From: Escherichia coli
GTDB taxonomy: Bacteria; Pseudomonadota; Gammaproteobacteria; Enterobacterales; Enterobacteriaceae
Direction: 5' to 3' (one strand)
Assembly (NCBI RefSeq): GCF_003018255.1
Contig: NZ_CP027440.1
Length of the DNA: 64,000 nt
The translations under genes and the position numbers were made by a program. Positions 1 to 45,250 of this stretch are shown one piece after another. The notes under the pieces were generated by a model, which did no database searches, was not told the origin of the DNA, and saw nothing but the letters and a program-made list of their open reading frames with translations. Positions within the stretch are counted from its first letter, which is position 1; each line of letters opens with the position of its first letter.

Positions 1-118
1 GGCCTCAACAGCATTGAATATGTTCACCAGCGCCAGTAACGCGGGTTACGGGAAAGAAGACGATAGCGCAGTTATCAAGATTTTCTCTGGCATCACCCTA
101 CCGGGAGCGAAATCATGA
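1..118 (+). CDS. 3' end of an upstream dehydrogenase gene (ygbJ-like), partial; start lies outside the window
   Basis: Open frame from the window edge ending at TGA 116-118, overlapping the ATG of the next gene (ATGA), which suggests operon coupling. Identity is inferred from conserved gene order only. Confidence 0.5.
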   Translation, partial: ASTALNMFTSASNAGYGKEDDSAVIKIFSGITLPGAKS

Positions 119-1377
119 TCAAGATTGGCGTTATCGCCGATGATTTTACCGGCGCGACGGATATCGCCAGTTTTCTGGTGGAAAACGGTCTACCAACGGT
201 ACAAATTAACGGTGTTCCAACAGGTAAAATGCCGGAAGCAATCGACGCACTGGTGATCAGCCTGAAAACGCGCTCCTGTCCGGTGGTTGAAGCCACACAG
301 CAATCGCTGGCGGCTCTGAGCTGGTTGCAACAGCAAGGTTGCAAACAGATCTATTTCAAATACTGCTCTACTTTCGACAGTTCGGCGAAAGGTAATATCG
401 GCCCGGTTACCGATGCATTAATGGATGCTCTCGACACGCCGTTTACGGTCTTCTCTCCGGCCCTGCCGGTCAACGGACGTACGGTTTATCAGGGGTATTT
501 GTTCGTAATGAATCAACTGCTGGCCGAATCCGGGATGCGCCATCACCCGGTAAATCCCATGACCGACAGCTATCTTCCCCGTCTGGTTGAAGCGCAATCC
601 ACAGGGCGCTGCGGCGTCGTTTCGGCACATGTTTTCGAACAAGGTGTGGATGCCGTTCGTCAGGAGCTGGCTCGCTTACAGCAAGAGGGCTACCGCTACG
701 CGGTGCTTGATGCGCTGACCGAACACCATCTGGAAATTCAGGGAGAAGCCTTGCGCGATACCCCACTGGTAACGGGCGGTTCTGGTCTGGCGATTGGCCT
801 TGCCCGGCAGTGGGCGCAAGAAAACGGTAACCAGGCTCGCGAAGCAGGGCGTCCGCTCGCTGGGCGCGGCGTAGTGCTCTCCGGTTCATGCTCTCAAATG
901 ACCAACCGCCAGGTGGCACATTACCGTCAAATTGCACCAGCCCGTGAGGTTGATGTGGCACGCTGCCTCTCAACCGAAACTCTGGCCGCTTATGCACACG
1001 AGCTGGCAGAGTGGGTTCTGGGCCAGGAAAGTGTACTTGCTCCACTGGTTTTTGCCACCGCCAGCACTGACGCATTGGCAGCAATTCAACAGCAATACGG
1101 TGCACAAAAAGCCAGTCAGGCAGTGGAAACACTGTTTTCTCAACTAGCGGCGCGGTTAGCAGCGGAAGGCGTGACACGCTTTATTGTCGCAGGCGGTGAG
1201 ACCTCCGGCGTAGTCACACAGAGCCTGGGCATAAAAGGTTTTCATATTGGCCCAACCATTTCCCCCGGCGTGCCGTGGGTAAACGCACTGGATAAGCCTG
1301 TCTCACTCGCCCTTAAATCTGGCAACTTCGGTGATGAAGCCTTTTTTTCACGAGCCCAAAGAGAGTTTTTATCATGA
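115..1377 (+). CDS. ygbK: YgbK-type four-carbon acid-sugar kinase (3-oxo-tetronate kinase, OtnK; DUF1537 family)
   Basis: 420-aa ORF with N-terminus MIKIGVIADDFTGATD typical of this family; stop overlaps the next start. Confidence 0.85.
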   Translation: MIKIGVIADDFTGATDIASFLVENGLPTVQINGVPTGKMPEAIDALVISLKTRSCPVVEATQQSLAALSWLQQQGCKQIYFKYCSTFDSSAKGNIGPVTDALMDALDTPFTVFSPALPVNGRTVYQGYLFVMNQLLAESGMRHHPVNPMTDSYLPRLVEAQSTGRCGVVSAHVFEQGVDAVRQELARLQQEGYRYAVLDALTEHHLEIQGEALRDTPLVTGGSGLAIGLARQWAQENGNQAREAGRPLAGRGVVLSGSCSQMTNRQVAHYRQIAPAREVDVARCLSTETLAAYAHELAEWVLGQESVLAPLVFATASTDALAAIQQQYGAQKASQAVETLFSQLAARLAAEGVTRFIVAGGETSGVVTQSLGIKGFHIGPTISPGVPWVNALDKPVSLALKSGNFGDEAFFSRAQREFLS

Positions 1378-2012
1378 GCGATTTCGCAAAAGTAGAGCAG
1401 TCTTTGCGAGAGGAGATGACGCGGATTGCCAGTTCATTCTTTCAGCGCGGATATGCAACTGGTTCGGCTGGCAATCTGTCGCTGCTTTTACCTGACGGGA
1501 ATTTACTGGCGACACCGACAGGTTCATGCCTGGGCAATCTCGATCCGCAGCGGCTTTCCAAAGTCACCGCGGATGGCGAATGGTTAAGTGGTGACAAACC
1601 CTCGAAAGAGGTGCTCTTTCATCTGGCGCTGTATCGCAACAATCCGCGCTGTAAAGCGGTAGTGCATTTGCACAGTACGTGGTCGACGGCGCTTTCCTGC
1701 CTGGAAGGGCTGGACAGCAATAACGTTATTCGGCCGTTCACACCATACGTGGTGATGCGGATGGGAAACGTCCCGCTGGTGCCCTATTACCGACCGGGCG
1801 ATAAACGCATCGCACAGGATCTGGCGGAACTGGCAGCAGACAATCAGGCTTTTTTACTGGCAAATCATGGCCCAGTGGTTTGCGGTGAAAGCCTGCAAGA
1901 AGCCGCCAACAATATGGAAGAGCTAGAGGAAACGGCAAAGCTGATTTTTATTCTCGGTGACCGCCCGATCCGTTATCTGACCGCAGGTGAAATTGCGGAA
2001 TTAAGGAGTTAA
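1374..2012 (+). CDS. ygbL: class II aldolase/adducin-family decarboxylase (3-oxo-tetronate 4-phosphate decarboxylase, OtnC)
   Basis: 212-aa ORF; ATGA overlap with ygbK; position in the ygb operon. Confidence 0.85.
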
Positions 2013-2016
2013 TGCA

Positions 2017-2793
2017 ATGCCTCGTTTTGCAGCTAATTTATCCATGATGTTCACCGAAGTGCCTTTTATTGAACGCTTCGCCGCAGCGCGAAAAGCCGGG
2101 TTCGATGCTGTGGAGTTTCTGTTTCCCTATGACTACTCCCCCCAGCAAATCCAGCAGCAACTGGCGCAAAACCACCTGACGCTGGCGCTGTTCAATACCG
2201 CTCCCGGAGATATTAATGCGGGAGAATGGGGATTATCCGCCCTTCCCGGACGTGAGCACGAAGCACGTGCAGACATCGACCTGGCACTGGAATATGCATT
2301 GGCGCTCAATTGTGAACAAGTCCATGTGATGGCAGGCGTCGTGCCCGCTGGCGAAGATGCTGAACGGTACCGGGCAGTATTTATTGATAATCTCCGCTAC
2401 GCTGCCGACCACTTTGCGCCACACGGCAAGCGAATATTGGTTGAAGCACTCAGCCCCGGCGTTAAGCCTCATTATCTCTTCTCCAGCCAGTATCAGGCAC
2501 TGGCTATTGTTGAAGAGGTTGCGCGAGATAACGTTTTTATTCAACTAGATACTTTCCATGCGCAAAAAGTAGATGGCAACCTGACGCATTTAATCCGCGA
2601 CTACGCCGGGAAATATGCGCACGTACAAATTGCCGGACTACCTGATCGACATGAACCGGACGATGGAGAAATCAACTATCCGTGGCTGTTCCGCCTGTTC
2701 GATGAAGTGGGATATCAGGGCTGGATCGGTTGTGAATACAAACCTCGTGGCCTCACCGAAGAAGGACTTGGCTGGTTTGACGCCTGGCGCTAA
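2017..2793 (+). CDS. ygbM: hydroxypyruvate isomerase-like TIM-barrel protein (2-oxo-tetronate isomerase, OtnI)
   Basis: 258-aa ORF starting 4 nt after the ygbL stop; xylose-isomerase-like fold signature. Confidence 0.85.
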
Positions 2794-2881
2794 TTCGTTA
2801 AATCCCCAATTACAACGTACCCATACATCCCCCCATCTACGGATGGGGTAGGTTAACTATAACTTTCAGACAGGGTTTCCC

Positions 2882-4246
2882 ATGTCCACAATTACATTGT
2901 TATGCATTGCGTTAACTGGCGTAATCATGCTGTTGCTGCTGGTCATCAAGGCAAAGGTACAACCATTCGTTGCTCTGCTCCTCGTCAGCCTGTTAGTCGC
3001 ACTTGCGGCGGGTATACCGGCGGGCGAAGTGGGTAAAGTGATGATCGCCGGGATGGGCGGTGTGCTTGGTTCCGTCACTATTATTATTGGTCTGGGCGCT
3101 ATGCTGGGGCGTATGATCGAACACTCTGGTGGTGCAGAGTCACTGGCTAATTATTTCAGTCGCAAGTTAGGCGACAAACGAACTATCGCTGCGCTGACTC
3201 TGGCAGCGTTCTTCCTCGGTATTCCCGTCTTCTTTGATGTCGGCTTTATTATTCTTGCGCCAATCATTTACGGTTTTGCCAAGGTTGCCAAAATATCACC
3301 ACTCAAATTTGGTCTGCCTGTCGCTGGGATCATGCTCACTGTTCACGTGGCGGTACCGCCTCATCCAGGCCCTGTCGCCGCAGCGGGGTTACTCCACGCA
3401 GACATCGGCTGGCTAACCATCATCGGTATTGCGATTTCTATTCCCGTAGGGATTGTTGGCTACTTTGCAGCGAAAATAATCAATAAGCGCCAATATGCGA
3501 TGTCGGTCGAGGTACTGGAACAGATGCAACTGGCTCCGGCCAGTGAGGAAGGCGCGACAAAATTAAGCGATAAAATAAATCCACCGGGCGTCGCGCTGGT
3601 CACCTCGCTAATTGTTATTCCTATCGCGATTATCATGGCGGGTACGGTTTCCGCAACACTGATGCCGCCTTCGCATCCCCTGCTTGGTACGCTACAGCTG
3701 ATCGGCTCACCAATGGTAGCTCTAATGATTGCGCTGGTGCTGGCATTCTGGTTATTGGCTTTACGTCGCGGCTGGAGCTTACAACACACCAGCGACATTA
3801 TGGGCTCAGCCCTTCCCACTGCGGCGGTAGTGATTTTGGTTACTGGTGCTGGAGGGGTATTTGGCAAAGTGCTGGTGGAATCGGGCGTCGGTAAAGCCCT
3901 TGCCAACATGTTACAAATGATTGACCTGCCTCTGTTACCAGCCGCATTTATTATTTCACTGGCGCTGCGTGCATCGCAGGGGTCAGCAACCGTAGCAATC
4001 CTGACAACCGGCGGGTTACTCTCAGAAGCGGTGATGGGATTGAATCCAATTCAGTGCGTATTGGTGACGCTGGCAGCCTGCTTTGGTGGGCTTGGCGCGT
4101 CACATATTAATGACTCAGGGTTCTGGATTGTGACCAAATATCTGGGGTTGTCGGTAGCAGACGGGCTGAAAACCTGGACAGTGTTAACGACCATTCTCGG
4201 TTTTACCGGATTCTTAATTACCTGGTGCATATGGGCGGTAATTTGA
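2882..4246 (+). CDS. ygbN: GntP-family acid-sugar:H+ permease
   Basis: 454-aa highly hydrophobic ORF of GntP transporter length and pattern. Confidence 0.85.
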   Translation: MSTITLLCIALTGVIMLLLLVIKAKVQPFVALLLVSLLVALAAGIPAGEVGKVMIAGMGGVLGSVTIIIGLGAMLGRMIEHSGGAESLANYFSRKLGDKRTIAALTLAAFFLGIPVFFDVGFIILAPIIYGFAKVAKISPLKFGLPVAGIMLTVHVAVPPHPGPVAAAGLLHADIGWLTIIGIAISIPVGIVGYFAAKIINKRQYAMSVEVLEQMQLAPASEEGATKLSDKINPPGVALVTSLIVIPIAIIMAGTVSATLMPPSHPLLGTLQLIGSPMVALMIALVLAFWLLALRRGWSLQHTSDIMGSALPTAAVVILVTGAGGVFGKVLVESGVGKALANMLQMIDLPLLPAAFIISLALRASQGSATVAILTTGGLLSEAVMGLNPIQCVLVTLAACFGGLGASHINDSGFWIVTKYLGLSVADGLKTWTVLTTILGFTGFLITWCIWAVI

Positions 4247-4253
4247 CCTTAAT

Positions 4254-4281
4254 AAAAGGTCCGATGGGCATCGGACCTTTT
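4254..4281. terminator. bidirectional intrinsic terminator between ygbN (+) and the decarboxylase operon (-)
   Basis: Perfect inverted repeat AAAAGGTCCGATG/CATCGGACCTTTT, A-run before and T-run after, directly flanked by two convergent stop codons. Confidence 0.7.
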
Positions 4282-4283
4282 AT

Positions 4284-4520
4284 TTAGCGCTTACCTTCCG
4301 CCAGCAGCGGCGGGATGCTCGGCACCATCGGCGCGTCATCAATATCTTTCTGCGTCATGCGGAACGCTTCGGGATAATGTTCGCGGCTGGTGCGGCGTAG
4401 CGGTTCGGTATCGCGCCAGGTATAGAGGCAATGCTGGCACTGGTAGACCATCCAGACATCTTTTACCGGCGATTTCGCCATCACTTCAATCTGTTCATCG
4501 GCACAACGTGGACAAATCAT
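4284..4520 (-). CDS. ecdD: small zinc-ribbon subunit of a UbiD-type hydroxyarylic acid decarboxylase (EcdD/KpdD/BsdD-like)
   Basis: 78-aa ORF with CPRC...CQHC; immediately downstream of and co-oriented with the UbiD-like gene. Confidence 0.75.
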   Translation of the reverse strand: MICPRCADEQIEVMAKSPVKDVWMVYQCQHCLYTWRDTEPLRRTSREHYPEAFRMTQKDIDDAPMVPSIPPLLAEGKR

Positions 4521-4530
4521 CTTGTTCTCC

Positions 4531-5958
4531 TTATTGACGTGCGGCCAGCATAGCGGTCAGTTTTTCAGCCCAGGCTTTGGTTTCCGGTAAGTCCACCACC
4601 GGCTGGCTGTAGTGACCACGGTTGTCCGGGGCGACAGGCGTGGTGGCGTCGATAATCAGCTTGTCGGTGATCCCCGCCGGACTTGAGCCAGGGTCGAGTT
4701 CCAGCACGGACATATTCGGCAACTGTACCAAATCCCCTGCCGGGTTCACTTTCGAGGAGAGCGCCCACATCACCTGCGGCAGGTTGAACGGATCAACGTC
4801 TTCATCGACCATAATCACCATCTTCACGTAGCCCAGACCGTGCGGCGTGGTCATCGCACGCAGGCCCACCGCGCGGGCAAAGCCGCCGTAGCGTTTTTTG
4901 GTGGAGATAATCGCCAGCAGGCCGTGGGTGTACATGGCGTTTACCGCCTGCACTTCCGGGAACTCGGCTTTCAGTTGTTGATACAGCGGCACGCAGGTGG
5001 CAGGCCCCATCAGGTAGTCGATTTCGGTCCACGGCATACCAAGATAGAGCGATTCGAAAATCGGTTTGGTACGGTAAGAGACTTTATCGATACGCACCAC
5101 GGTCATGTTACGCCCGCCGGAGTAGTGGCCGGTAAACTCACCGAACGGCCCTTCAATCTCACGTTTACGACTTTCGATAACCCCTTCGAGGATCACTTCC
5201 GAGCCCCACGGCACATCAAAACCGGTCAGCGGGGCGGTGGCGATCGGGTACGGGCTTTCGCGCAGCGCGCCTGCCATTTCGTACTCAGACTGATCGTATT
5301 TCAGCGGCGTGGCCCCCATTAGGGTGATGATCGGATCGTTACCGAGTGTGATGGCAATCGGCAGATCTTCACCGCGCTCTTCTGCTTTATGCAGATGCAG
5401 GGCGATATCGTGCATCGGCACCGGTTGCAGGCCGAGCTTACGCTTGCCCTTCACTTCCATGCGGTAGATGCCGACGTTCTGCTTGCCGAAGTTATCCGGG
5501 TCGAGCGGATCGCGGGAAACCACGCACGCTTTATCGAGATAGAAACCGCCATCACCGTCGTTTAAACGAAACAGCGGCAGAATATTGAACAGGTTGATCT
5601 CGTCGCCATCGACGGTGTTCTGCGCCCAGGCTGGATTGGCGCGGCGCTCCGGGGCAATGGGGAAGTTATCCCAGCGGCGGATAAACTCATCAATCTGTTT
5701 TTTAACCGGGGTGTTTGGCGGCAGGCCGAGGGAAATCGCGTGGTTCTGCCAGGAACCGATGGTGTTCATTGCCACGCGGGCATCGATAAAGCCGCGAATA
5801 TTATCAAACCAAAGCGCGGGCGCGCCGTCGCCGATACGCCCGGTGGCGTTGGCTGCGGCTGCCAGATCCGGTTCCGCGTTCACCTCTTCGCTGATTTTCA
5901 GTAACTGGCCGTGGTCATCAAGCGCCTGTAAAAAGCTGCGTAAATCATCAAATGCCAT
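4531..5958 (-). CDS. ecdC: UbiD-family non-oxidative aromatic acid decarboxylase (EcdC/KpdC-like)
   Basis: 475-aa ORF with UbiD-like N-terminus MAFDDLRSFLQALDDHGQLLKI; start overlaps the upstream stop. Confidence 0.85.
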   Translation of the reverse strand: MAFDDLRSFLQALDDHGQLLKISEEVNAEPDLAAAANATGRIGDGAPALWFDNIRGFIDARVAMNTIGSWQNHAISLGLPPNTPVKKQIDEFIRRWDNFPIAPERRANPAWAQNTVDGDEINLFNILPLFRLNDGDGGFYLDKACVVSRDPLDPDNFGKQNVGIYRMEVKGKRKLGLQPVPMHDIALHLHKAEERGEDLPIAITLGNDPIITLMGATPLKYDQSEYEMAGALRESPYPIATAPLTGFDVPWGSEVILEGVIESRKREIEGPFGEFTGHYSGGRNMTVVRIDKVSYRTKPIFESLYLGMPWTEIDYLMGPATCVPLYQQLKAEFPEVQAVNAMYTHGLLAIISTKKRYGGFARAVGLRAMTTPHGLGYVKMVIMVDEDVDPFNLPQVMWALSSKVNPAGDLVQLPNMSVLELDPGSSPAGITDKLIIDATTPVAPDNRGHYSQPVVDLPETKAWAEKLTAMLAARQ

Positions 5959-6551
5959 TATTCATTCTCCTGAGAAAAATTCCGGGCCTGCGGCAATCCT
6001 TGCCAGCGCCTGGCGTGAGGATGTTCGAGGCCAAATTGATCCAGCACGCGGGCTACCACGTGGTGGACAATGTCATCTACCGTTTCGGGATGGTTATAAA
6101 AGGCAGGCATCGGCGGCACCATCGCCACGCCCATGCGCGAAAGTGCGAGCATATTTTCGAGATGGATTGTGCTAAGCGGCATTTCACGCGGCACCAGCAC
6201 CAGTTTGCGGCCTTCTTTGAGCACGACGTCCGCCGCGCGCCCCACCAGGCCATCGGCGTAACCAGCGCGGATACCGGCGAGCGTTTTCATACTGCATGGA
6301 ATAACGATCATGCCGTCGGTACGAAAGGAGCCGGAAGAGATAGTCGCCGCCTGATCCGCCGGGTTATGGCTGAAGTCTGCGAGGGCGGCAACATCGCGAG
6401 CGCTGTAAGGCGTTTCCAGTTCAATCGTGATTTTCGCCCACTTCGACATCACTAGATGAGTCTCGACATTCGGCATCTCCCGCAGCGCTTGCAGTAATGC
6501 CACACCAAGAGGCGCACCGGTAGCCCCTGTCATCCCGACGATCAGTTTCAT
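5958..6551 (-). CDS. ecdB: UbiX/Pad1-family flavin prenyltransferase (EcdB/KpdB-like)
   Basis: 197-aa ORF with MKLIVGMTGATGA flavoprotein motif; first gene of the three-gene minus-strand operon. Confidence 0.85.
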   Translation of the reverse strand: MKLIVGMTGATGAPLGVALLQALREMPNVETHLVMSKWAKITIELETPYSARDVAALADFSHNPADQAATISSGSFRTDGMIVIPCSMKTLAGIRAGYADGLVGRAADVVLKEGRKLVLVPREMPLSTIHLENMLALSRMGVAMVPPMPAFYNHPETVDDIVHHVVARVLDQFGLEHPHARRWQGLPQARNFSQENE

Positions 6552-6568
6552 TGCTTACTCTCTTAATT

Positions 6569-6582
6569 GTTCGTATACGAAC
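6569..6582. promoter_or_regulatory. 14-bp perfect palindrome GTTCGTATACGAAC in the divergent promoter region (candidate MarR-type operator)
   Basis: Perfect dyad about 18 nt upstream of the ecdB start codon, between the divergent MarR gene and the decarboxylase operon. Confidence 0.35.
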
Positions 6583-6697
6583 GTTATTATTAACATACTC
6601 CTTCATTTCCACAGCGGCAAGGATTGAAAAGTAACAACATCTTCTTCGTCACTGAAAAACCGCTATGATAGCGACAGAGAATTAGCCCGGAGTTTAC

Positions 6698-7105
6698 ATG
6701 GCGTTACGAAATAAAGCGTTCCATCAGTTACGACAGCTTTTTCAGCAGCATACAGCTCGCTGGCAGCACGAGTTACCTGACCTGACCAAACCACAGTACG
6801 CGGTGATGCGCGCCATTGCTGATAAGCCTGGTATCGAACAGGTGGCACTGATAGAAGCAGCAGTCAGCACCAAAGCAACGCTGGCAGAAATGTTGGCAAG
6901 AATGGAAAATCGTGGCTTAGTCAGACGTGAACATGACGCCGCTGACAAGCGGCGACGCTTTGTCTGGCTGACTGCCGAAGGAGAAAAGGTACTTGCTGCG
7001 GCGATCCCCATTGGTGACAGTGTGGATGAGGAATTTTTGGGGCGTTTGAGTGCAGAAGAGCAGGAGCTGTTTATGCAGTTGGTGCGCAAGATGATGAGCA
7101 AATAG
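6698..7105 (+). CDS. MarR/SlyA-family transcriptional regulator
   Basis: 135-aa ORF with winged-helix MarR pattern, divergent from the decarboxylase operon. Confidence 0.8.
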   Translation: MALRNKAFHQLRQLFQQHTARWQHELPDLTKPQYAVMRAIADKPGIEQVALIEAAVSTKATLAEMLARMENRGLVRREHDAADKRRRFVWLTAEGEKVLAAAIPIGDSVDEEFLGRLSAEEQELFMQLVRKMMSK

Positions 7106-7182
7106 GATGCTGATTGCCGGGTAGGACGCTGACGAGTCTTATCCAGGCGACAAAACACACCGACTTCCCAAACAAAAGAAAA

Positions 7183-7208
7183 AGGCCAGCCTCGCTTGAG
7201 ACTGGCCT
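7183..7208 (-). terminator. rpoS intrinsic terminator
   Basis: 11-bp stem (AGGCCAGCCTC/GAGACTGGCCT, one mismatch) followed on the minus strand by a U-rich tract, about 20 nt downstream of the rpoS stop. Confidence 0.65.
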
Positions 7209-7225
7209 TTCTGACAGATGCTTAC

Positions 7226-8218
7226 TTATTCGCGGAACAGCGCTTCGATATTCAGCCCCTGCGTTTGCAGGATTTCGCGCAAACGGCGCAGGCCTTCAAC
7301 CTGAATCTGGCGAACACGTTCACGGGTGAGGCCAATTTCACGACCTACATCTTCCAGTGTTGCCGCTTCGTACCCCAGCAAACCGAATCGACGTGCCAGT
7401 ACTTCACGCTGTTTGGCGTTCAGCTCGAACAGCCATTTGACGATGCTCTGCTTCATATCGTCATCTTGCGTGGTATCTTCCGGACCGTTCTCTTTTTCAT
7501 CGGCCAGGATGTCCAGCAACGCTTTTTCGGAATCACCACCCAGCGGGGTGTCTACCGAGGTAATGCGCTCGTTAAGACGAAGCATACGGCTGACGTCATC
7601 AACTGGCTTATCCAGTTGCTCTGCGATCTCTTCCGCACTTGGTTCGTGGTCCAGTTTATGGGACAACTCGCGTGCGGTTCGCAGGTAAACGTTCAGCTCC
7701 TTTACGATGTGAATAGGCAAACGAATAGTACGGGTTTGGTTCATAATCGCCCGTTCGATCGTCTGGCGAATCCACCAGGTTGCGTATGTTGAGAAGCGGA
7801 AACCACGTTCCGGGTCAAACTTCTCTACCGCGCGGATCAGCCCCAGGTTGCCCTCTTCGATCAGGTCCAGCAACGCCAGACCACGATTGCCATAACGGCG
7901 GGCAATTTTTACCACCAGACGCAAGTTACTCTCGATCATCCGGCGGCGGGAGGCAACATCTCCACGCAGTGCGCGACGCGCAAAATAAACTTCTTCTTCG
8001 GCCGTTAACAGTGGTGAATAACCAATCTCACCAAGGTAAAGCTGAGTCGCGTCCAGCACACGCTGTGTGGCTCCCTGCGATAACAGTTCCTCTTCGGCCA
8101 AATCGTTATCACTGGGTTCCTCTTCTACTAAGGCCTTTTCGTCAAAAACCTCAACTCCGTTCTCATCAAATTCCGCATCTTCATTTAAATCATGAACTTT
8201 CAGCGTATTCTGACTCAT
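7226..8218 (-). CDS. rpoS: RNA polymerase sigma factor sigma-S (sigma-38)
   Basis: ORF extends to 8254 but the start is placed at [17 protein letters not shown], giving 330 aa; sigma-70 family regions present; codon 33 is Glu, so no amber or truncating allele. Confidence 0.95.
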
Positions 8219-8280
8219 AAGGTGGCTCCTACCCGTGATCCCTTGACGGAACATTCAAGCAAAAGCCTGGTTCCGCCGAT

Positions 8281-9420
8281 TTATCGCTGCGGCAAATAAC
8301 GCAGCGGGTTTACGGATTTCCCCTTGTAACGAATTTCAAAATGCAAGCGTGTTGAACTGGTTCCGGTGCTACCCATGGTTGCTATTTTTTGCCCCGCCTT
8401 CACTTCTTGTTGTTCCCGGACCAGCATTGTGTCGTTATGGGCGTAGGCACTCAGGTAATCATCATTATGTTTGATGATAATCAGATTACCGTAGCCGCGC
8501 AGCGCGTTACCGGCATAAACAACGCGGCCATCTGCGGTCGCGATAATTGCCTGTCCTTTGCTGCCTGCGATATCAATCCCCTTGTTGCCCCCCTCAGAAG
8601 CGCCAAAGGTTTCGATCACTTTGCCCTCAGTCGGCCAGCGCCAGGTGGAGATAGGCGTACTGGTTGATGTACTGCTGACAGTCGGCTCGGTTGTGCTTGC
8701 TGTTGGTACCGTTACAGGCGCTGTGACCGTGGTCGCAGTTGGCTTGTTGTTCGGCAACATTTTGTTAGCACTCTGTTCACCCGAAGACTCAGAATACGTA
8801 ATTGTCGGTTGCGACGCAACAGCAACGGTGGAATTTTGTGCAGGCTTGATCACAACTCCTTGCTCTGCTGCGTCGGCCTGGGTAATGGCATTTCCGCCAG
8901 TGATTGGCGTACCGGAAGCATTACCCACCTGTAAGGTCTGACCGACGTTCAGCGCGTATGGTGCCTGAATATTGTTGCGCTGAGCAAGGTCACGGAAATC
9001 GTTGCCAGTAATCCAGGCGATATAGAAAAGTGTGTCGCCTTTTTTCACGGTATAGGTACTGCCGCTATAACTGCCTTTCGGAATGTTCCCATACTGACGG
9101 TTGTAGACGATGCGTCCGTTTTCCATCTGTACCGGCTGCTGAGCTACTGGCTGTACTGGCTGGATTTGCGGTTGTTGAGTAGCCTGAATTTGTGGCTGCT
9201 GTACCGGCTGAATTTGCGGTTGCTGCGCTGTAGACGTCGTCCCCATTTTCGGCGGCGGCGTAATCAACATACCAGAATTGGTATTTGCAGGCGCATTGCC
9301 ATTAACGGAGCTGACCGGTGCCGGTGGATTTGAAGTGTCAGAACAGCCTGCCAGCCATAGCGAAACCAGTGACAAAGCCGCAATGCGGCGAACGGTGAAT
9401 TTTGGGCTTCCCGCGCTCAT
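8281..9420 (-). CDS. nlpD: murein hydrolase activator lipoprotein NlpD (LysM plus M23 peptidase-like domains)
   Basis: 379-aa ORF with lipoprotein signal (LAGC), Q/P-rich repeats and a C-terminal M23 domain. From established knowledge, the main rpoS promoter lies inside this gene. Confidence 0.95.
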
Positions 9421-9559
9421 TTATCCCCCAGGAAAAATTGGTTAATAACCAGTGACATAATTACCGTGCAAGGCACCATACTGAACACTGGAAAAGATGT
9501 TCACGATACGCTGACCTGCGGCAAAATAACCAGGAAAAATCCAGGTATTTCCTCACGTT

Positions 9560-10921
<1,362 letters not shown>

Positions 10922-10941
<20 letters not shown>

Positions 10942-11971
10942 AATCACCTGTTGTGTTGATAAGTTCCCTGACAACGCTGGTTGCAAAACTTCCCGCCGGA
11001 AGCCAGAAACGGATTTCTACGGTGACGTCATCCCACCAGTTCCAGCTTAATTGTTGCGGATACAGCAGCATCGCTCTGCGCGCGGCTTCAACTTTTTCGC
11101 GCACCAGTAAGGTTTGTAATTCAGTTTCTTCGGCGACAGCTGCTTGTTCGAATGCCAGCGCTTCACGCTGAGTTCCCCATTCGCCACTGCCCGGCAATGC
11201 GGCGGTTATCATCAGCTCTTTATCGTTGACGCGACGCTGTAATTCCGCCAGTTCTTCGGTGGTTGCAACAAACCAGCTACCACGTCCGGCTAATTGTAGC
11301 GCATCGCCGTCAACAACTTGATTAACGTCTGCTTTTTTGAGGCGCTCAGCAACAATCTGATTAAACAACGCACTGCGGGCTGCCGACAACCAAAAACTCC
11401 GTTTATTGCGATCGCGCACCGGAGTATTGGTTTGCGCCCAACGCAGCGCGCCCTGCAAGTTGCTACCGCCAATCCCAAAACGTTGGGCACCGAAGTAGTT
11501 CGGTACACCTTTTACGCAAATATCGATCAGACGTTGTTCAACGTCATCGCGATTGCTCACTTCGCGTAGTACCAGGGTAAAGGCGTTACCTTTCAGCGCC
11601 CCTAAACGCAGCTTGCGCTTGTGCCGCGCATACTCCAGCACCTGGCAGCCTTCCAGTTGAAAGGCGCTCAGATCGGGCATCTCTTTGCCCGGCACGCGAG
11701 CGCATAACCACTGTTCCGTAACAGCATGTTTATCTTTTTGCCCAGCGAAGCTGACTTCACGGGCATGAATTTTCAGGAATTTCGCCAGTGCATCCGCCAC
11801 AAAACGGGTATTGCAGCCGTTTTTGAGGATTCTAACCAGAATATGCTCACCTTCACCATCAGGCTCAAAGCCCAAATCTTCCACCACCACAAAGTCTTCC
11901 GGATTGGCTTTCAGCAGCCCGGTGCCTTGCGGTTTACCGTGGAGGTAAGTGAGATTATCAAACTCAATCAT
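10922..11971 (-). CDS. truD: tRNA pseudouridine(13) synthase TruD
   Basis: 349-aa ORF; overlaps ispF stop and surE start (operon). Confidence 0.9.
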
Positions 11972-12447
11972 TTTGTTGCCTTAATGAGTAGCGCCACCGC
12001 TTCACAGGCAATCCCTTCCCCACGTCCGGTAAATCCCAGTTTTTCCGTAGTAGTGGCTTTCACGTTAACATCATCCATATGGCAGCCGAGATCTTCGGCA
12101 ATAAACACGCGCATTTGTGGAATGTGCGGCAACATCTTCGGTGCCTGAGCGATGATAGTGACATCGACGTTGCCGAGGGCATAACCTTTCGCCTGAATAC
12201 GACGCCAGGCTTCGCGCAACAGCTCGCGGCTGTCGGCACCTTTAAATGCCGGATCGGTATCCGGGAACAGCTTGCCTATATCTCCCAGCGCCGCCGCGCC
12301 AAGCAATGCATCGGTCAACGCATGGAGCGCCACGTCGCCATCAGAATGCGCCAGCAGCCCTTTTTCGTAAGGAATGCGTACGCCACCAATGATAATTGGG
12401 CCTTCACCGCCAAAGGCGTGTACGTCAAAACCGTGTCCAATTCGCAT
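11968..12447 (-). CDS. ispF: 2-C-methyl-D-erythritol 2,4-cyclodiphosphate synthase
   Basis: 159-aa ORF with N-terminus [12 protein letters not shown]. Confidence 0.95.
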
Positions 12448-44735: not shown

Positions 44736-45069
44736 TGGTTTATCCCCGCAGGCGCGGGGAACTCATAGAGAAAAGAAACGGCAGCTTTGCCACTTCCGGT
44801 TTATCCCCGCTGGCGCGGGGAACTCCGCGTTTCTAATCTCACCGCCACGGCGATCAACGGTTTATCCCCGCTGGCGCGGGGAACTCACCCCTTTAACGTC
44901 ACCAGACCGCTAACGACGCGGTTTATCCCCGCTGGCGCGGGGAACTCGCGTAACCATTTTGATGGCGCTACCGAAATGGCGGTTTATCCCCGCTGGCGCG
45001 GGGAACTCGATCAACGGCCTGGCGGCTGCCTCTGAAATCTCGGTTTATCCCCGCTGGCGCGGGGAACTC
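44736..45069 (-). CRISPR. orphan type I-E CRISPR array: 6 repeats, 5 spacers of 32 nt
   Basis: Same repeat as the cas-adjacent array at a 61-nt period; the leader-distal repeat is a variant (TGGTTTATCCCCGCAGGCGCGGGGAACTC). Confidence 0.97.
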
Positions 45070-45250
45070 TCTAAACATAACCTATTATTAATTAATGATT
45101 TTTTAAGCCAGTCACAATCTACCAACTTTACAGTATCACACAAACAACACATCCATTATGTTAAAGAGCACTTAATCCATTGATTAAAAAGCTAAATATT
45201 TAAAATAACTCTATACAAACTAAAATCTACCAAACTTCGCCGCAATAATT
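45070..45250 (-). promoter_or_regulatory. leader of the orphan CRISPR array
   Basis: AT-rich sequence abutting the last repeat, beginning TCTAAACATAACC, which parallels the TCTAAAAGTATAC start of the cas-adjacent leader. Confidence 0.6.

Follow-up and report, generated by a model that had tools for sequence, protein, structure and literature searches.

The non-oxidative hydroxyarylic acid decarboxylases of the VdcBCD type form an enzyme family with crystal structures, and HosA, the regulator encoded next to them in enterobacteria, is in use as a biosensor for 4-hydroxybenzoate. The genes of Escherichia coli O157:H7 were reportedly cloned by Lupa et al. in 2005 (Genomics 86:342) and found to provide hydroxyarylic acid decarboxylase activity, while Ferrandiz 2005 is said to be among the papers on HosA as a member of the MarR/SlyA family. 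In E. coli these genes belong to the mutS-rpoS region, which has been a textbook case of genome mosaicism in this species since 1999–2000. We analyzed a 64,000-nucleotide stretch of E. coli DNA (from contig NZ_CP027440.1 of assembly GCF_003018255.1; hereafter the window) that carries a four-gene block of about 2.9 kb between ygbN and rpoS, and we read this block, with a probability of about 90%, as the HosA-regulated vdcBCD operon encoding the reversible non-oxidative 4-hydroxybenzoate/vanillate decarboxylase of enterobacteria. The operon is also known as hadBCD, kpdBCD, ecdBCD, or pad1-yclC, and every element of it has already been described in the literature and is annotated by standard pipelines. 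In what follows, ligand, repression, and enzyme activity are taken from the literature on near-identical or orthologous proteins, while genes, residues, operator, and distribution come from our own sequence comparisons.

Among the described relatives are VdcBCD, BsdBCD, and ShdBCD of Streptomyces sp. D7, Bacillus subtilis, and Sedimentibacter hydroxybenzoicus, respectively, which share the B-C-D gene order, the E-R-E catalytic triad, and the zinc ribbon with the proteins of the window (PMC8379154), though these gram-positive homologs are clearly more distant (E 6e-160). Prenylated flavin mononucleotide (prFMN) is made by the UbiX-type B proteins. VdcC is inactive without VdcD, which binds and activates it, and the VdcCD complex with prFMN decarboxylates both 4-hydroxybenzoate and vanillate (PMC8379154). 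In a screen of gut bacteria, the strong phenol producers among Enterobacteriaceae carried HadBCD (KpdBCD) homologs, and the orthologs that share 96–97% identity with the window's act as 4-hydroxybenzoate decarboxylases, with a link to phenol production (PMC6424909). Both the decarboxylase operon and hosA itself are repressed by HosA of E. coli UMN026, which binds a palindrome lying downstream of the transcription start; 4-hydroxybenzoate frees HosA for a several-fold induction of the operon (Roy & Ranjan 2016, as summarized in bioRxiv 10.1101/2024.04.24.590444; repression of the operon also in PMC6261655 and PMC13355054, summarizing Roy & Ranjan 2016). The dissociation constant (Kd) of HosA for 4-hydroxybenzoate is 4.74 µM (PMC6261655), HosA of O157:H7 responds to this compound in vivo up to 38-fold and specifically (PMC13355054), and HosA has been tied to motility by flagella in enteropathogenic E. 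coli (EPEC; bioRxiv 10.1101/2024.04.24.590444).

A first-pass annotation made from the sequence alone had recognized four genes, a three-gene operon on the minus strand and a divergent MarR-family regulator, and the list of open reading frames (ORFs; window positions 1–12000), Pfam, and NCBIfam all agree with it. The four ORFs are intact, lie at the positions given by that annotation, and equal the RefSeq genes of carrier strains in length:

4284–4520, minus strand: vdcD (hadD, kpdD, ecdD), 237 nt, 78 aa, zinc-ribbon subunit
4531–5958, minus strand: vdcC (hadC, kpdC, yclC), 1428 nt, 475 aa, UbiD family, prFMN-dependent catalytic subunit
5958–6551, minus strand: vdcB (hadB, kpdB, pad1), 594 nt, 197 aa, UbiX-family flavin prenyltransferase
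6552–6697: divergent promoter/operator region between vdcB and hosA, 146 bp
6569–6582: HosA operator, a 14-bp perfect palindrome, GTTCGTATACGAAC
6661–6673: second perfect palindrome, upstream of hosA, CGCTAT-G-ATAGCG (6-1-6)
6698–7105, plus strand: hosA, 135 aa, MarR-family regulator

With the order B-C-D, a 1-base overlap of the vdcB stop and the vdcC ATG (TAATG), and a gap of 10 nt between vdcC and vdcD that holds an AAGGAG Shine-Dalgarno motif about 6 nt before the vdcD ATG, the three minus-strand genes are packed as expected of an operon.

Pfam assigns UbiD_N/UbiD/UbiD_C to VdcC and Flavoprotein (the UbiX fold) to VdcB, and all three subunits pass their dedicated NCBIfam models: VdcB (NF041206) with 311.1 bits at a cut-off of 290, VdcC (NF041204) with 788.4 bits at 650, and VdcD (NF041205) with 119.8 bits at 30. 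RefSeq names them [quoted passage not shown] in carrier genomes. VdcB also scores 341.7 bits against BagM_FevK, below the cut-off of 420 of that model. Assignments as phenylphosphate carboxylase, menaquinone decarboxylase, or BagM/BagN were rejected, all of them falling under the curated cut-offs. At 195 of 197 positions, VdcB is identical to PDB 1SBZ, which we take to be the “Pad1” structure from E. coli O157:H7, and VdcC is 96–97% identical at the amino acid level to its Klebsiella and Enterobacter orthologs. Over its full length VdcC matches Sedimentibacter VdcC (PDB 7AE4 chain A; E 6e-160), and VdcD matches ShdD of the same entry (E 4.8e-11) with C3/C6/C28/C31, R36, and E39 kept.

Mapping the residues described in PMC8379154 onto the alignments with PDB 7AE4, we found that the UbiD-like ORF retains the catalytic residues on which the first-pass annotation had staked its assignment. 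The E-R-E triad is E269/R166/E274, the active-site leucine L421 is present, and these positions align with R168/L425 of ShVdcC and E277/R173/E282/L439 of Fdc1; N161 and H183 are present as well. VdcD has two CxxC knuckles whose cysteines (C3, C6, C28, and C31) align with the zinc-binding cysteines of ShVdcD. Two of the three salt bridges between the subunits are kept (VdcD R36 to VdcC E29 and VdcD E39 to VdcC R131), but the R12-D173 bridge is not, these residues being E12 and G171 in the window proteins. At the pocket positions V180 and L419 of VdcC and V66 of VdcD, the window proteins have the states of B. subtilis, unlike Sedimentibacter. Since the B. subtilis enzyme also accepts syringate, these residues suggest a similarly wide substrate range for the window VdcCD, which may include syringate.

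The regulator is HosA: its MarR domain scores 45.8 bits with Pfam, and it differs at no more than one of residues 1–134 from PDB 8AGA (“Transcriptional regulator HosA”) and six further entries. The only visible difference is residue 134, where the alignment of the 135-residue protein ends (the window protein has S, the PDB sequence has N), and all published ligand- and DNA-contact residues are therefore retained. The operator of the published HosA system is identical to that of the window, where 17 bases separate GTTCGTATACGAAC from the vdcB ATG; the HosA binding-site oligonucleotide in the supplement of PMC6261655 contains TTAATTGTTCGTATACGAACGTTATTA, identical in all 27 bases to window positions 6564–6590. 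Anywhere else in the window, no match to GTTCGTATACGAAC was found at up to 3 mismatches. While the vdcB-hosA intergenic region surrounding it is 87.7% identical between the window and O157 alleles, the operator itself is invariant.

One genome per species was scanned for close relatives of VdcC, which returned the 80 best loci, and among these almost all of the rpoS-syntenic ones are from Enterobacteriaceae. In nearly all of the 80 loci (about 75), GTTCGYRYRCGAAC is kept around 30 bp upstream of the operon, including loci of Pantoea, Rahnella, and a Vibrio. The Klebsiella and Enterobacter orthologs have the same divergent hosA-like regulator and operator, and most adjoin rpoS. Our repeat search of the intergenic region had skipped the operator palindrome, which was found by direct reading and pattern matching.

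Around the operator, candidate promoter elements can be picked out by eye, with TAATAA/AATAAT just upstream of it possibly serving vdcB and TATGAT possibly serving hosA. The second palindrome (6661–6673) overlaps this −10-like TATGAT hexamer, lies 25 bp upstream of hosA, and does not resemble the HosA operator; its sequence is the same in the window and O157 alleles and only partly kept in other genera, and the palindrome could be an autoregulatory site, a site for another factor, or a hairpin in the 5′ untranslated region. In many genera there is another operator-like copy, GATCGTATACGAAC, closer to hosA and about 57 bp from the main operator (loci L004, L007, L008, L010, L016, L025, L028, and others), whereas E. 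coli alleles lack it, and E. coli may therefore have simplified its hosA-vdcB control region.

As we picture the system, VdcB would make prFMN, with which VdcC would use its E-R-E triad to strip CO2 from para-hydroxy aromatic acids, converting 4-hydroxybenzoate to phenol and vanillate to guaiacol, while the four-cysteine zinc ribbon of VdcD would bind VdcC and hold its catalytic loops in place. When no substrate is around, a HosA dimer bound at GTTCGTATACGAAC, between promoter and vdcB start, would block transcription of both the operon and hosA; 4-hydroxybenzoate would bind HosA, release it from DNA, and in this way induce the operon. Given the literature on VdcCD, on prFMN, and on HadBCD in phenol producers together with the 96–97% identity of VdcC, the most likely function of the block is to turn 4-hydroxybenzoate into phenol and vanillate into guaiacol under induction by 4-hydroxybenzoate. 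The first-pass annotation had considered the substrate unknown from sequence, which is superseded by the identity of the regulator as HosA with 4-hydroxybenzoate as its ligand and by vanillate as second substrate of the family. Among its three candidates, 4-hydroxybenzoate and vanillate are substrates of the family, and protocatechuate belongs to the separate AroY branch.

An enzyme of that branch, or a gallate decarboxylase of the LpdC type, would share the UbiD superfamily and the prFMN chemistry with VdcBCD, and KpdB/EcdB can supply AroY with prFMN. But the similarity of AroY to VdcC is weak (structures 5O3M and 5NY5 at E 1e-27 to 1e-25, whereas the VdcC structure reaches 6e-160), VdcC clears its own model with 788 bits, VdcD is present here while AroY is active without such a subunit and LpdD is unrelated to VdcD, and the cognate regulator HosA is specific for 4-hydroxybenzoate, all of which makes a protocatechuate or gallate decarboxylase very improbable. 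The genes are even less plausibly a spare UbiX/UbiD pair for ubiquinone biosynthesis (i.e., for decarboxylation of 3-polyprenyl-4-hydroxybenzoate): the proteins are indeed paralogous to UbiD and UbiX, and VdcB can probably supply prFMN to UbiD, but VdcC reaches only 174.1 bits with the UbiD equivalog model NF008175 (cut-off 788), neither UbiD nor AroY has a VdcD partner or is under HosA control as this operon with its 4-hydroxybenzoate-responsive repressor is, and 56% of E. coli dispense with the block. That the physiological direction is instead carboxylation, from phenol to 4-hydroxybenzoate in the anaerobic and CO2-rich gut, would fit the description of the family as reversible decarboxylases/phenol carboxylases. 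However, the inducer is the acid and not the phenol, Enterobacteriaceae with the cluster accumulate phenol from 4-hydroxybenzoate, and no gene for a phenol-activating kinase or phosphatase is found nearby (ORF list, window positions 1–12000), so that we give this direction very little credence. What weighs against the HosA-regulated decarboxylase itself is that a scan of positions 4150–7300 with the sigma-70 consensus found no promoter, the vdcB-hosA intergenic region included, that activity and induction of the window allele would be those carried over from 96–99% identical proteins, and that the physiological role could lie in detoxifying phenolic acids or parabens, in producing phenol, in the reverse carboxylation, or in something else.

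The block had been described as about 2.9 kb of DNA between ygbN and rpoS that K-12 lacks, and alignment with K-12 MG1655 confirms this, since the ygbN-rpoS spacer of that strain is only 93 bp. The two sequences are colinear through the ygbN terminator to around position 4284 and again from around position 7177, just before the rpoS terminator, with a 7-nt filler (gtgcaca) in K-12 at the place of the block. The boundaries and flanks are as follows:

~4285–7176: block-specific DNA, about 2.9 kb, absent from K-12 (each boundary ambiguous by 2–4 bases)
2882–4246, plus strand: ygbN, GntP-family transporter, left flank
4254–4281: ygbN terminator hairpin, a symmetrical A-run/stem/T-run, flank, also in K-12
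7179–7212, minus strand: rpoS intrinsic terminator, flank, common to K-12
7226–8218, minus strand: rpoS, right flank, followed by nlpD, pcm, surE, and truD

Terminators on either side had been proposed to bound the block, and both hairpins are real. The one at 4254–4281 folds strongly on both strands as claimed (−21.0 and −21.5 kcal/mol; z −5.9 and −6.6), but it is the terminator of ygbN and, being identical in K-12, part of the flank and not of the block. Our terminator scan skipped this hairpin, because its A/T arms lengthen the stem and use up the T-tail, and it was confirmed by folding. Facing the 3′ end of vdcD, it is predicted to be able to terminate the convergent vdcBCD transcript as well. 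The rpoS terminator (−24.5 kcal/mol; z −5.0) is the only hairpin downstream of hosA. A scan of window positions 1–12000 with Rfam at gathering thresholds returned zero matches.

The window agrees with the 2.9-kb mutS-rpoS segment of O157:H7 and EPEC E2348/69 in its four genes, in their order, and in the junction to the rpoS terminator. In E2348/69, ygbN lies on the other side of the block exactly as in the window, while O157 lacks the ygb genes and the block abuts pphB; in O157:H7 FRIK944, for example, the four genes adjoin rpoS and follow pphB and a different hairpin. The comparison with K-12 and O157:H7 suggested by the first-pass annotation hence gives an empty site in the former and the same genes, though without the ygb neighbors, in the latter. 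At the nucleotide level, the O157 and window alleles differ by about 4% overall and by 12% in the vdcB-hosA intergenic region.

These arrangements fall into the published typing scheme of the o454(ygbN)-nlpD region, in which pattern I has no ygbN (as in EDL933), pattern II is K-12-like, pattern III has a different insert and belongs to phylogroup B2, and pattern IV has kpdD-kpdC-kpdB-slyA between ygbN and rpoS as in E2348/69 (Ewers 2014, PMC4209514, crediting the original descriptions to LeClerc 1999, Herbelin 2000, Culham & Wood 2000, and Kotewicz 2003). The arrangement of the window is pattern IV. Counted as present at ≥80% coverage, the block is found in 2380 of 5426 complete E. coli genomes (44%), always chromosomal and in single copy, so that it is carried by only some E. 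coli, as had been supposed, and is not universal; an independent query with the hosA end gave 2381 genomes. The ygbN-vdcD junction of the window type occurs in 1601 of the 5426 genomes (30%), and the other ~780 carriers are O157-like or otherwise rearranged. Over the hosA end, most carriers share only 93.6–96.4% identity with the window, and an allele with at least 99% identity is found in at most 28 of the 2380, making the window allele a rare variant that is diverged by about 4%.

As a side observation, the E. coli strains 200164 and E04 have an IS200C transposase gene between the 3′ end of ygbN and the 3′ part of vdcC; an insertion of the IS200 family at this intergenic site has already been reported (PMC4209514). 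A sequence labelled “Escherichia coli strain DH5alpha” (NZ_CM135829.1) carries the complete block at 95.7% identity and, given that K-12 derivatives should be without it, is probably mislabelled or contaminated.

The first-pass annotation called the block an island, which overstates the case for acquisition, because the synteny of rpoS, hosA, and vdcBCD across Enterobacteriaceae points to loss in K-12-like lineages instead. The order rpoS-hosA-vdcBCD is found in 46 of the 80 loci (34 close and 12 with a spacer), and the block is inverted in another 5:

34 loci in more than 10 genera: nlpD-rpoS-hosA-vdcB-vdcC-vdcD in the orientation of the window, with a tail-to-tail rpoS-hosA gap of 67–235 bp (e.g., Citrobacter, Pseudocitrobacter, Kluyvera, Kosakonia, Atlantibacter, Franconibacter, Mangrovibacter, some Klebsiella/Enterobacter, and an Escherichia cryptic lineage)
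12 loci: order as in the window with 0.4–2.7 kb inserted
5 loci: block inverted against rpoS (Salmonella arizonae and diarizonae, Phytobacter)
29 loci: rpoS not within the locus (8 with truncated upstream flank; most of the other 21 outside Enterobacteriaceae)

This cross-genus synteny, together with the lack of mobility features, favors an ancestral site next to rpoS, and the block is probably an old resident of Enterobacteriaceae that K-12 has lost and not an island that other strains have gained. This view fits the title that Herbelin et al. gave their paper, “Gene conservation and loss…” (cited via PMC4209514). On this basis, about 56% of sequenced E. coli, K-12 among them, would have lost the block or had it replaced, with allelic replacement by recombination playing a part as well.

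What could instead be argued for a horizontally acquired genomic island in some pathogenic or commensal E. coli, with the empty site of K-12 as the ancestral state, is the presence/absence polymorphism itself, the guanine-plus-cytosine content of the block (55.4% compared to 50.6% for the whole window), which is the only criterion of a mobile island that fits, the 3–8 times higher divergence of third codon positions in the block than in rpoS and nlpD between E. coli strains, the unusual closeness of vdcCD to Pseudocitrobacter sequence, and the wording of the older literature and of the HosA preprint, which speak of insertion or horizontal transfer. Against this stands that only the four operon genes and no integrase, transposase, or transfer RNA gene are found inside the block (ORF list), that reading the junctions against K-12 revealed no flanking direct repeats, that 34 species representatives spread over more than 10 genera share the order nlpD-rpoS-hosA-vdcBCD, as do another 12 with a spacer, and that replacement of alleles by recombination accounts for the excess divergence without de novo insertion. 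We therefore regard acquisition as unlikely and prefer ancestral residency, though it speaks against the latter that this history is read from synteny and that E. albertii, E. fergusonii, and most Escherichia clades are not among the 80 best loci. If so, the family-wide synteny argues that the empty site of K-12 is a deletion, correcting the usual wording as an insertion.

The survey of the 80 loci yielded several further observations. In the inverted loci (L020, L021, L023, L047, and L049), vdcD and rpoS point at each other with their 3′ ends, 53–77 bp apart. Around 2.6 kb of extra DNA lie between rpoS and hosA in loci of Enterobacter, the Klebsiella oxytoca group, Leclercia, and Lelliottia (L010, L017, L018, L026–L028, L040, L043, and L060). 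About 12 species have hosA-vdcC-vdcD without vdcB in between (L041, L051, L053, L061, L064, L067, L072, L073, L075, L076, L081, and L083), and their supplier of prFMN would therefore be encoded elsewhere. Loci of Martelella alba (Rhizobiales; L071) and Vibrio salinus (L079) have 88–91% VdcC identity and a conserved operator, reflecting either long-range transfer or misassigned assemblies. Contig 72 (5967 bp; L005) of the metagenome-assembled genome HRGM_Genome_0066 (“Citrobacter sp.”) is 100% identical to the window in the vdcB-hosA intergenic region and 98% identical in hosA DNA, and since this genome also has a second, Citrobacter-like copy (L009), the contig is probably an E. coli contamination of the bin.

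Even so, recombination remains active in the block. We compared the window to O157 and to three Pseudocitrobacter species (L004, L007, and L008) by the percentage of third codon positions that differ in each gene:

vdcD: 8.9% from O157, 11–14% from Pseudocitrobacter
vdcC: 10.9% from O157, 14–20% from Pseudocitrobacter
vdcB: 9.1% from O157, 42–47% from Pseudocitrobacter
hosA: 7.4% from O157, 57–59% from Pseudocitrobacter
rpoS: 3.0% from O157, 28–30% from Pseudocitrobacter
nlpD: 1.3% from O157, 35–36% from Pseudocitrobacter

The DNA of vdcC and vdcD (4284–5958) is 92–98% identical to that of the three Pseudocitrobacter species, and a discontinuity lies at the vdcB/vdcC boundary around position 5960, in agreement with a sliding-window comparison. 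This pattern suggests an intergeneric exchange of the vdcCD module, and we lean slightly toward viewing the locus as chimeric and as still subject to reshuffling between genera; Escherichia and Pseudocitrobacter would then recently have exchanged only the catalytic CD module, against the background of an ancestral syntenic locus. LeClerc is said to have already named the segment chimeric in 1999, so that the exchange partner or donor and the breakpoint would be all that is new if this view is true.

Carrying the block would mark strains as able to convert dietary or paraben-derived 4-hydroxybenzoate to phenol, which is a precursor of the uremic toxin phenyl sulfate. With the block in 44% of genomes and the ygbN-adjacent pattern IV in 30%, its presence or absence is also a useful typing marker. 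Elsewhere in the window, positions 44797–45077 hold a clustered regularly interspaced short palindromic repeats (CRISPR) array with a 61-bp periodicity and the type I-E repeat CGGTTTATCCCCGCTGGCGCGGGGAAC, as expected downstream of cys/iap in E. coli.

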